37,530 nt of DNA from a virus (Duplodnaviria; Heunggongvirae; Uroviricota; Caudoviricetes). The position numbers and the translations under genes were made by a program. Position 1 is the stretch's first letter, and each line of letters opens with the position of its first letter. The notes beneath the pieces are model-generated. The model ran no database searches. It was not told the DNA's origin and saw only the letters and a program-made list of their open reading frames with translations. Positions 35,454 through 37,530 of the stretch are shown here, in pieces. The stretch is taken from the IMG/VR virus record IMGVR_UViG_2663763220_000005; one strand, given 5' to 3'.

Positions 35454-35816
35454 ATGGCTAGCGAACGCAGTACTGATGTGCAGGCATTTATCGGGGAGCT
35501 GGACGGCGGCGTATTTGAAACCAAAATCGGCGCAGTTCTCAGTGAAGTCGCTTCCGGTGTGATGAACACGAAAACCAAAGGTAAGGTCTCGCTCAACCTG
35601 GAAATCGAACCGTTTGATGAGAACCGAGTGAAAATCAAACACAAACTCTCATATGTTCGCCCGACTAACCGCGGGAAAATTTCCGAAGAAGACACCACCG
35701 AAACGCCGATGTATGTCAATCGCGGTGGTCGCCTGACTATTCTGCAGGAAGACCAGGGACAGTTACTGACTCTTGCCGGTGAACCTGACGGAAAACTCCG
35801 CGCAGCAGGTCGTTAA
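35454..35816 (+). CDS. Hypothetical early protein (120 aa), YfdP-like by position
   Basis: GAGGAG RBS 7 nt upstream of the ATG at 35454; the longer 226-aa ORF in the track would span the structured non-coding region. Confidence 0.55.
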   Translation: MASERSTDVQAFIGELDGGVFETKIGAVLSEVASGVMNTKTKGKVSLNLEIEPFDENRVKIKHKLSYVRPTNRGKISEEDTTETPMYVNRGGRLTILQEDQGQLLTLAGEPDGKLRAAGR

Positions 35817-35881
35817 TATCGTTTTTAATTAACTGATTATTTATCTCATCACTGAATATCTTTATATAGTGAGGACTTATT

Positions 35882-36706
35882 ATGTCTCAGAACTTAGACG
35901 CAACCGCAATTAATCAAATCCATGCCCTTATTTCTGCTCAGGGTGTTAATGAAATTATCAGTAAGATTGGTGCCGATGCTGTGGCATTGCCTGAGAATTT
36001 CCGCATTCATGATCTGGAAAAATTTAATTTAAATCGCTTCCGTTTCCGTGGTGCGTTTTCCACTGCCAGCATCGATGACTTTACCCGTTATTCTAAAGAT
36101 CTTGCAGATGAAGGCACCCGCTGCTTTATCGATGCTGATAATATGCGTGCCGTCAGTGTGCTTAACCTGGGTACTATTGATGAACCAGGTCACGCAGATA
36201 ACACCGCCACACTCAAACTGAAAAAGACAGCACCGTTCTCTGCTCTGTTGTCTGTTAACGGCGAGCGTAACTCCCAGAAGTCACTGGCAGAATGGATTGA
36301 AGACTGGGCCGACTATCTTGTGGGCTTTGATGCTAATGGTGACGCTATTCAGGCAACAAAAGCGGCTGCGGCTGTCCGTAAAATCACGATTGAAGCAAAC
36401 CAGACCGCTGATTTTGAAGATAATGACTTCAGCGGCAAACGCTCCCTGATGGAGTCTGTCGAAGCGAAGACCAAAGACATTATGCCAGTGGCATTTGAAT
36501 TTAAATGCGTTCCGTTTGAAGGTCTGAAAGAACGTCCGTTTAAATTACGCCTCAGTATTATCACTGGCGATCGTCCTGTACTGGTTCTGCGCATTATTCA
36601 GCTGGAGGCGGTGCAGGAAGAAATGGCTAACGAATTTCGTGATCTGCTTGTTGAGAAATTCAAGGACAGCAAAGTAGAAACCTTTATTGGTACTTTCACC
36701 GCCTGA
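35882..36706 (+). CDS. yfdQ: YfdQ-like protein (DUF2303 family)
   Basis: 274 aa, same length and sequence as I recall for CPS-53 YfdQ, followed by the yfdR-like gene. Confidence 0.7.
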
Positions 36707-36718
36707 TTTCATTACTGC

Positions 36719-36740
36719 AAATGCCCCTGCGGGGGCATTT
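36719..36740 (+). terminator. GC-rich hairpin between the yfdQ-like and yfdR-like genes (possible attenuator)
   Basis: AAATGCCCC-tgcg-GGGGCATTT; no long T-tract. Confidence 0.4.
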
Positions 36741-36833
36741 ATGGAAACGTAATTTACTCAATAATCGCCGGATGGTGAGGGATTCTTTTTACCAGAATTC
36801 AGCGCGGTGCAGCGCATATACGTGGAGAACAAA

Positions 36834-37370
36834 ATGTCATTTATTAAAACTTTTTCCGGGAAGCATTTTTATTATGACAGGATAAATAAAGACGACATCG
36901 ATATTAACGATATCGCGGTTTCCCTTTCAAATATCTGTCGCTTTGCCGGCCATCTTTCGCACTTCTACAGCGTCGCCCAACATGCGGTTCTTTGCAGCCA
37001 GCTGGTGCCGCAGGAATTTGCTTTTGAAGCGTTAATGCATGATGCAACAGAAGCGTATTGCCAGGACATTCCCGCACCACTGAAACGCCTTCTTCCTGAC
37101 TATAAACAAATGGAAGAAAAAATAGACGCCGTAATCCGTGAGAAATACGGGTTACCCCCAGTTATGAGTACGCCCGTGAAATATGCCGATCTCATCATGC
37201 TGGCAACCGAACGCCGCGATCTCGGGCTTGATGATGGCTCTTTCTGGCCTGTACTGGAAGGTATCCCGGCAACAGAGATGTTCAACGTGATTCCACTGGC
37301 TCCGGGCCATGCCTACGGGATGTTTATGGAACGCTTTAACGAGTTATCGGAGTTACGCAAATGCGCATGA
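36834..37370 (+). CDS. yfdR: HD-domain phosphohydrolase, YfdR / YfbR 5'-deoxynucleotidase family
   Basis: 178 aa from the ATG with GGAG RBS; H...HD motif (SVAQHAV ... LMHDATEAY). Confidence 0.7.
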   Translation: MSFIKTFSGKHFYYDRINKDDIDINDIAVSLSNICRFAGHLSHFYSVAQHAVLCSQLVPQEFAFEALMHDATEAYCQDIPAPLKRLLPDYKQMEEKIDAVIREKYGLPPVMSTPVKYADLIMLATERRDLGLDDGSFWPVLEGIPATEMFNVIPLAPGHAYGMFMERFNELSELRKCA

Positions 37371-37530
37371 ATGTTTTCGAAATGGAAGGGTTTCTTCGTG
37401 GGAGATGTGTACCGCGAGATCTGAAAGTAAATGAAACAGATGCTGAATACGTAGTGCGTAAATTCGATGCGCTTGAAGCTAAATGTGCAGCACAGGAAAA
37501 CAAAGTAATACCAGTGTCAACTGAACTGCC
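37367..37530 (+). CDS. Hypothetical protein, 3'-truncated by the window end (YfdS-like by position)
   Basis: ATGA start-stop overlap with the yfdR-like gene; frame open to the window edge. Confidence 0.45.
   Translation, partial: MNVFEMEGFLRGRCVPRDLKVNETDAEYVVRKFDALEAKCAAQENKVIPVSTEL

Follow-up and report, generated by a model that had tools for sequence, protein, structure and literature searches.

The yfdQRST genes of Escherichia coli K-12 came to light because, in multicopy, they suppress hda-185 (Noguchi and Katayama, Front Microbiol 2016, PMC4776307), and multicopy yfdQ and yfdR together with either yfdS or yfdT block initiation at oriC. The K-12 YfdR protein binds DnaA directly, an interaction that needs Phe46 of DnaA domain I, it competes moderately with DiaA and DnaB, and extracts containing YfdQRST inhibit oriC replication in vitro (PMC4776307). 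Early-left operons of lambdoid phages commonly carry the cluster, and the functions of yfdQ and yfdP are not known (Casjens and colleagues, PMC12315714). Here we describe the yfdP-yfdQ-yfdR-yfdS block, and the RNA leader that precedes it, in a 37,530-nucleotide (nt) stretch of Caudoviricetes DNA (IMG/VR virus record IMGVR_UViG_2663763220_000005), which in its entirety is referred to as the window and in which the block occupies positions 35454-37530 of the plus strand.

Among proteins that act on initiation, K-12 YfdR uses the Phe46 patch of DnaA domain I that also serves DiaA and DnaB, which is analogous to the binding of Bacillus subtilis SirA at Phe49 (PMC4776307). YfdR has no sequence relationship to lambda P, SirA or DiaA competitors, and its inhibition differs from that by lambda P and SirA in that partner proteins are required and the effect is seen only on overexpression. 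We propose, with a probability of roughly 0.55, that yfdP-Q-R-S(-T) is an early-left accessory cassette of an SfI/SfV/SfIV-type phage in which YfdR and its partners hinder DnaA-dependent helicase loading. An earlier reading of the same DNA, made from its letters without database searches and hereafter called the sequence-only reading, had suggested a takeover module of this kind, an idea that is plausible and was previously put forward by Noguchi and Katayama, who identified SfV orf29-31 as homologues and suggested, by analogy with lambda P, an inhibitory role in an ancestral propagating phage (PMC4776307). The same reading had stated that K-12 YfdR binds DnaA and that overexpression of the cluster inhibits initiation, and both statements are found in that paper.

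The yfdPQRS block and its K-12 counterpart

The block consists of the following genes.

35454-35816, plus strand: yfdP, 120 amino acids
35882-36706, plus strand: yfdQ, 274 amino acids, DUF2303
36834-37370, plus strand: yfdR, 178 amino acids, HD-domain phosphohydrolase whose K-12 counterpart binds DnaA
37361-37530, plus strand: yfdS, first 56 codons, the remainder lying beyond the window end

As the K-12 reference we used yfdP-yfdT as annotated on a chromosome of the K-12 lineage (locus L002). The four genes lie collinearly on one strand in the K-12 order, and the cluster proteins are 98-99% identical to those of K-12, with 118 of the 120 residues of YfdP, 271 of the 274 of YfdQ and 174 of the 178 of YfdR unchanged, together with 50 of 56 within the part of YfdS that is present. 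At the DNA level the yfdP-T block that survives in the cryptic prophage CPS-53 (KpLE1) is 96.6% identical to the window, and the resemblance of the genes to the K-12 cluster is, on these alignments, beyond chance. The stop of yfdR and the start of yfdS overlap by 10 nt, as read from the sequence and exactly as in K-12, and the two genes are predicted to be translationally coupled through this overlap.

The sequence-only reading had matched the gene order to the CPS-53 yfdPQRS cluster, which the K-12 alignment bears out, and had placed the start of the block at 35454, which is the start of K-12 YfdP. Its contrast between an intact version in a functional phage and the K-12 genes does not stand, as the K-12 copies are also intact and differ by 2-4 residues. 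The finding is correct and was already known, in that the gene set is annotated and partly studied. By itself it matters little: of 5426 complete E. coli genomes, 3035 carry the same DNA, with the gene names yfdP, yfdQ and yfdR assigned by RefSeq, and both the link to DnaA and the possible role in a phage were published in 2016. The main question is of what use the cassette is to a replicating phage, and SfI, SfV and SfIV are inducible.

Where the two loci do differ is in their surroundings. In CPS-53 of K-12 everything upstream of yfdP has been lost, such that there is no cI, no pL/oL region and no structured leader, and similarity to the window begins only at 35435; the block there adjoins a truncated replication gene, and torI is found in place of the SfV-type xis and int. 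Within the block, the 127-nt gap between yfdQ and yfdR contains a GC-rich hairpin, AAAUGCCCCUGCGGGGGCAUUU (36718-36743), that is not followed by a U-run and may account for the listing of a yfdPQ operon apart from yfdR in K-12 databases.

Early-left position and proposed role

The immunity region upstream of the block has the following elements.

33464-34138, plus strand: cI, repressor with an S24 peptidase domain (Pfam 1.5e-26)
34150-34169: terminator hairpin of cI, from a promoter/terminator scan
34178-34205, plus strand: candidate promoter pL, TTGACA-16-CATAAT, which follows the cI terminator directly and is the best promoter-like site in this region
34184-34202 and 34204-34222, plus strand: operator-like (oL) sites overlapping the candidate pL

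An operator-like motif of 19 base pairs (bp), ATGTACN8TACAT, occurs at 33379, 33412 and 33429, between cro and cI (oR, within 33379-33447), and twice more over the pL-like promoter at 34184 and 34204; a scan for the pattern gave 17 matches where 7.7 were expected. From this arrangement of oR/oL motifs and promoter we infer that the block is under repressor control from pL. The position of the block in the early-left region, as suggested by the sequence-only reading, is thus supported on both sides, with cI, oL and the pL-like promoter upstream in the window and, on the downstream side, yfdT, xis and int as seen in phage SfIV, which is 99% identical.

We envisage that in the lysogen the repressor, together with a terminator-like hairpin in the leader, would silence the block, and that upon induction or infection the block would be transcribed from pL. 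YfdR, aided by YfdQ and by YfdS or YfdT, would then impede the DnaA-dependent loading of DnaB onto the host origin, with the outcome that initiation by the host is dampened and replication of the phage is favored. The HD phosphatase activity of YfdR might make a secondary or separate contribution, and YfdP-YfdQ would represent an older, always-paired unit.

YfdR as an HD-domain phosphohydrolase

The assignment of YfdR to the HD superfamily rests on several comparisons. It matches PHROG 318 ("deoxyribonucleoside 5' monophosphate phosphatase") at 2.7e-110, and its residues 19-175 align with Atu1052 (2GZ4; E-value 3.3e-14), an HD protein with no assigned function that is its nearest relative of solved structure. 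The match to YfbR (2PAQ) is confined to the HDAxE...D segment, with a phmmer E-value of 0.88. The H...HD...E...D...D constellation is common to YfdR, YfbR and Atu1052, the HDAxE...D part aligning residue by residue, and the metal ligands H50, H69, D70 and D119 (His...His-Asp...Asp) as well as E73 and D78 of YfdR align to these proteins. Among 53 non-identical orthologues, drawn from genome loci at one per species and reaching down to 46% identity, R36, H69, D70, E73, D78 and D119 are invariant, and H50 and F37 are kept in 52 and 50 of the sequences, respectively. Hence the HD motif is intact, as the sequence-only reading had stated, and the loss of catalytic HD residues that it had named as a refutation is not seen. 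Near its N-terminus YfbR has an Arg-Trp pair for substrate recognition. At the aligned position Atu1052 also has Arg-Trp, whereas YfdR has R36-F37; the N-terminus of YfbR itself did not align.

The same reading had placed YfdR within the YfbR family of 5'-deoxynucleotidases, and of this claim the superfamily stands but the family does not. YfdR scores 25.0 against the Pfam model PF12917 (YfbR family; cut-off 25.9) and 20.5 against the NCBIfam equivalog NF003009 (cut-off 122), and it is best described as an HD-superfamily phosphohydrolase of the YfdR/Atu1052 type. Phosphatase activity on deoxynucleoside monophosphates that depends on Co2+ is a mark of YfbR-type enzymes. The nucleotidase label of YfdR rests on K-12 biochemistry as relayed by a citing paper, according to which the affinity of YfdR for nucleotides is much lower than that of YfbR (Zimmerman 2008, cited in PMC4776307).

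These properties bear on the possibility that YfdR is mainly directed at nucleotides, as a phosphohydrolase acting on dNMPs or other nucleotides early in infection, either to alter the precursor pool or to remove a nucleotide-derived molecule, with its binding of DnaA being a side effect of overexpression. The complete HD site across the 53 orthologues is in keeping with such a role, as are the names given to YfdR by PHROG and RefSeq (a deoxynucleoside monophosphate phosphatase and a "5'-deoxynucleotidase," respectively) and the finding that purified YfdR alone does not block initiation in vitro (PMC4776307). However, besides the low affinity for nucleotides just cited, dephosphorylation of deoxynucleoside monophosphates would bring no obvious benefit to a temperate phage that leaves host DNA undegraded, and the suppression phenotype in K-12 also requires yfdQ and yfdS or yfdT. 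We regard a mainly nucleotide-directed YfdR as unlikely.

The yfdP-yfdQ pair and points against the proposed replication role

YfdQ is a clear member of the DUF2303 family (PF10065), matching over residues 7-272 with an E-value of 1.3e-92 and 310 bits against a cut-off of 26.6, and DUF2303 proteins are also found in phages of Xanthomonas, Halomonas, Acinetobacter and Gordonia. YfdP matches PHROG 204. The 120-residue YfdS orthologue of SfIV just reaches the cut-off of DUF551 (22.2 bits against 22) over residues 50-117, which in the present locus lie beyond the window end.

We surveyed 80 loci, one per species, each with a relative of YfdQ. All 79 loci for which upstream DNA was available have yfdP directly before yfdQ, with or without yfdR, and yfdR follows the pair in about 60. 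The invariant pair is yfdP-yfdQ, with yfdR as a frequent addition and yfdS and yfdT as incidental, which is new from this survey; in view of the 79 of 79 adjacencies the conserved unit is P-Q rather than the Q-R-S/T set defined genetically in K-12. In a number of prophages the yfdP-yfdQ slot between the leader and yfdR is taken by RdgC-family proteins, which are of two types (Pfam 1.5e-115 and 1.4e-30).

Prophages with RdgC in the yfdP-yfdQ slot: IMG/VR loci L168, L190, L192 and L197; also L204, L211, L279 and L281

The question is thereby narrowed to a yfdP-yfdQ core that RdgC can replace, with yfdR added to it. The exchange might mean that yfdP-yfdQ is a unit for DNA metabolism, recombination or anti-defense, independent of YfdR and interchangeable with RdgC as the first element of the early-left operon. 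The unbroken pairing of P and Q, irrespective of R, favors such a unit, and production of YfdQ caused a resident phage to form plaques (bioRxiv 10.1101/413146). In a mosaic genome, however, a common slot is weak evidence for a common function, the modeled structures suggest no DNA-binding fold, and the cluster is not correlated with absence of a Rec module (Casjens and colleagues, PMC12315714). A relationship between YfdQ and RdgC was in fact considered and rejected, as there is no similarity in sequence or profile (hhalign probability 0.1). On balance this possibility also has a low probability, on a par with that of a mainly nucleotide-directed YfdR.

A number of observations weigh against the proposed action of the cassette on DnaA. 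All functional data on the cluster come from multicopy or overexpression in K-12 and none from a replicating phage, purified YfdR alone does not block initiation in vitro, and deletion of yfdQRST leaves initiation unaffected (PMC4776307). Among the surveyed species, yfdP-yfdQ occurs without yfdR in about a quarter of the loci, including those of Vibrio, Marinobacter and Photobacterium, and the linkage of yfdS and yfdT is sporadic, so Q-R-(S/T) is not a conserved machine. AlphaFold models of YfdP and YfdQ gave no informative fold match, which is a weak negative as the models are of moderate confidence. Finally, the leader described below is found ahead of yfdR alone or of RdgC and yfdR, an indication that the accessory genes are independent pieces of a mosaic.

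The nucleotide-directed, P-Q and host-benefit explanations are not mutually exclusive. The last of these, that the cassette consists of lysogenic-conversion genes conferring, for example, tolerance of oxidative, acid or alkylation stress, is very improbable: deletion of CPS-53, yfdQ or yfdS is cited as raising sensitivity to hydrogen peroxide (Wang 2010, cited in PMC4776307), yfdPQ mRNA is detectable in K-12 and the host regulator SrsR binds upstream (PMC9181523), but in the window the block appears to be preceded by a terminator-like hairpin and a promoter under repressor control, and because the native upstream region is deleted in K-12 (match from 35435 only), expression there says little about the intact phage.

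A conserved structured leader ahead of yfdP

If there is novelty at this locus, it sits in the RNA ahead of the genes and not in the genes themselves: of all the elements described, the structured leader alone may be new and might reward further study. In lambda, nutL and an RNase III hairpin upstream of N form the leader of the pL operon. The present leader resembles that arrangement, HK022 putL and the prophage small RNA STnc100/PasD in placing structured RNA between pL and the first early-left gene, and, as in other lambdoid pL leaders, a long helix lies just before the ribosome-binding site. The interval from pL to yfdP comprises an open reading frame of PHROG 1744, an ECs1072-family gene and about 450 nt of non-coding leader. 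The leader (34986-35453, folded as 464 nt) is more stable than its shuffled versions (z = -5.2) and can be divided into three parts.

35096-35319, plus strand: part (a), STnc100-like core, linker and terminator-like hairpin, a sub-threshold match to Rfam RF02076
35269-35320, plus strand: part (b), intrinsic-terminator-like hairpin with a 12-bp stem, GGCGGUACCAGC/GCUGGUACCGUC, then CUUUUUAC
35312-35451, plus strand: part (c), structured leader RNA with an outer helix of about 23 bp, a three-way core and an invariant loop, GACGGGCUCAUAACCCAAUCC

The strongest evidence concerns part (c), in which the core is followed by a small hairpin and then by the Shine-Dalgarno sequence of yfdP. Over 20 genera (RNAalifold and pair counts), 98.3% of the cells at 43 predicted pairs are paired, as compared with 42-55% in slid controls, and 13 pairs covary where column shuffles give 5.2, none of 500 shuffles reaching 13. 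A covariance model of part (c), termed R1, scores 132.6 bits on the plus strand and 39 on the minus strand, which together with invariant U-G pairs indicates a plus-strand RNA. In Yersinia, Serratia, Rahnella and Proteus the model recovers weaker versions, located in the same place, in which the sequence of the inner stem is wholly different yet complementary. By nhmmer the leader stretch is found directly upstream of yfdP in about 40 species, with E-values down to 1e-32, and the flanking proteins in the species that bear it are just 55-70% identical. Part (c) is present in about 50 of the 80 surveyed loci; it has no match in Rfam, and the leader as a whole has no Rfam hit at the gathering level.

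The hairpin of part (b), seen in the minimum free energy fold, has a GC-rich 12-bp stem whose arms vary in a compensatory manner between genera (GGTACC/GGTACC, GGCGTC/GGCGCC, GTTATCC/GGATAAC and GTGATC/GATCAC). From its form it looks like an intrinsic terminator. Many prophage matches break precisely at 35268 or at 35316-35318.

Part (a) scores 43.4 bits (E-value 1.2e-7) against RF02076, for which the gathering threshold is 47, and no STnc100 is found in the leaders of 16 other genera, so the leader was rejected as a full STnc100 member and part (a) is a variable component of it. Its likeness to STnc100/PasD is thus sub-threshold and limited to the upstream part, and the canonical STnc100 occupies the late region: in phage Stx2a_1447 it lies at 18683-18898 of locus L283, 75 nt after stxB, with 153.8 bits, while a search of positions 1-26000 of that locus, which cover its leader, found none in the leader at an E-value of 0.001 or below. 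The 780 nt between cI and yfdP in Stx2a_1447 are without annotation. A single-stranded segment of 16 nt, UGCUGUGUGUAGUCUU (35254-35269), is identical in several genera and could be the seed of a small RNA.

The leader is non-coding, since the frame that would extend yfdP upstream is interrupted in 14 of the 20 genera, by stops no more than 12 codons from the yfdP start, and since the conserved nucleotides fall in differing frames among genera. The longer form of yfdP annotated in SfIV was accordingly rejected as an over-extension, and SfIV gp34 and gp35, where they run across the leader, are considered annotation errors. The two overlapping, spurious-looking SfIV reading frames over the leader are as follows.

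35136-35816, plus strand: 226 amino acids (SfIV gp34)
34904-35248, minus strand: 114 amino acids (SfIV gp35)

The true start of yfdP is at 35454, or possibly at 35436.

The leader is not tied to yfdP. An exact-motif scan of IMG/VR located it in 119 contigs, with yfdP as the next gene in 84; in the others the next gene is yfdR, or RdgC (Pfam 1.5e-115) followed by yfdR, or another gene. Because different genes follow it, the leader belongs to the head of the operon rather than to yfdP; in prophages of the SfV, Stx and ST64B types from many genera of Enterobacterales it opens the early-left operon, whichever gene comes first. We tentatively suggest, as an idea that is somewhat doubtful at present, that 35269-35451 is an undescribed cis-acting control element of lambdoid pL operons that lack a recognized N-like gene. 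It could function as a terminator-based attenuator, as a switch involving RNase III or translation, or by put-like antitermination. No N-like gene was recognized in the early-left arm here. Homology to put of HK022 was rejected, as BLAST found no similarity of the leader to the HK022 immunity region and the R1 model found no match in HK022. A tRNA or att remnant in the leader was likewise rejected, with no tRNA found by ARAGORN.

The apical hairpin of part (c), CGGGCUCAUAACCC (35346-35359), has three G-C pairs and the loop CUCAUAA, and we take it to be identical to the anticodon stem-loop of the E. coli initiator tRNA-fMet. The apical loops of other genera are CUCAUUC or CUCAUUA, which argues against strict mimicry of tRNA-fMet.

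Phage relatives and other features of the early-left arm

From 34100 to 37530 the DNA shares 99.0% identity with Shigella phage SfIV and 98.5% with SfV, and comparison of the arm with SfV orf29-33 and SfIV gp30-34 (98.5-99% identity) reveals no difference of substance. Further carriers named beside SfV and SfIV are SfI, SfII, Stx2c phages, cdtI, ST64B, phiNP and LLS. In SfIV the genes continue downstream in the order yfdS, yfdT, xis and int, and then gtrA, gtrB and gtrIV. Positions 415-21622 of the window, gtrI included, are 100% identical to phage SfI, and the window is therefore an SfI/SfV-type element, perhaps an integrated prophage. The immunity region and early-left arm resemble SfIV (99.0%) more than they do any of the records matching the structural half. 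Positions 1-414 have no match to SfI, SfII or SfIV and may be flanking host DNA at the prophage junction.

Two further genes lie between pL and the leader.

34358/34373-34579, plus strand: open reading frame of 68-73 amino acids (ORF73), PHROG 1744, function unknown
34551-34985, minus strand: ECs1072-family gene (NCBIfam 1.7e-46), convergent to the early-left transcript

ORF73 (34373-34579) was considered as an N-like antiterminator, and this is unsupported, as it has no arginine-rich N-terminus and matches PHROG 1744. The 3' end of the ECs1072-family gene overlaps the plus-strand reading frame by 29 nt, and this gene looks like an insertion of separate origin that would give rise to antisense transcription across the transcript from pL. 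Terminator-like hairpins are present on the minus strand at 34469-34444 and 34314-34295. Just upstream of the ECs1072 gene start and the leader are the two copies of a direct repeat, TTGTTGGGGA(T/A)AAC, at about 35003 and 35035 (35003-35049); the repeat is also conserved in a Kosakonia locus (L107) and may bind a protein or form part of a promoter.

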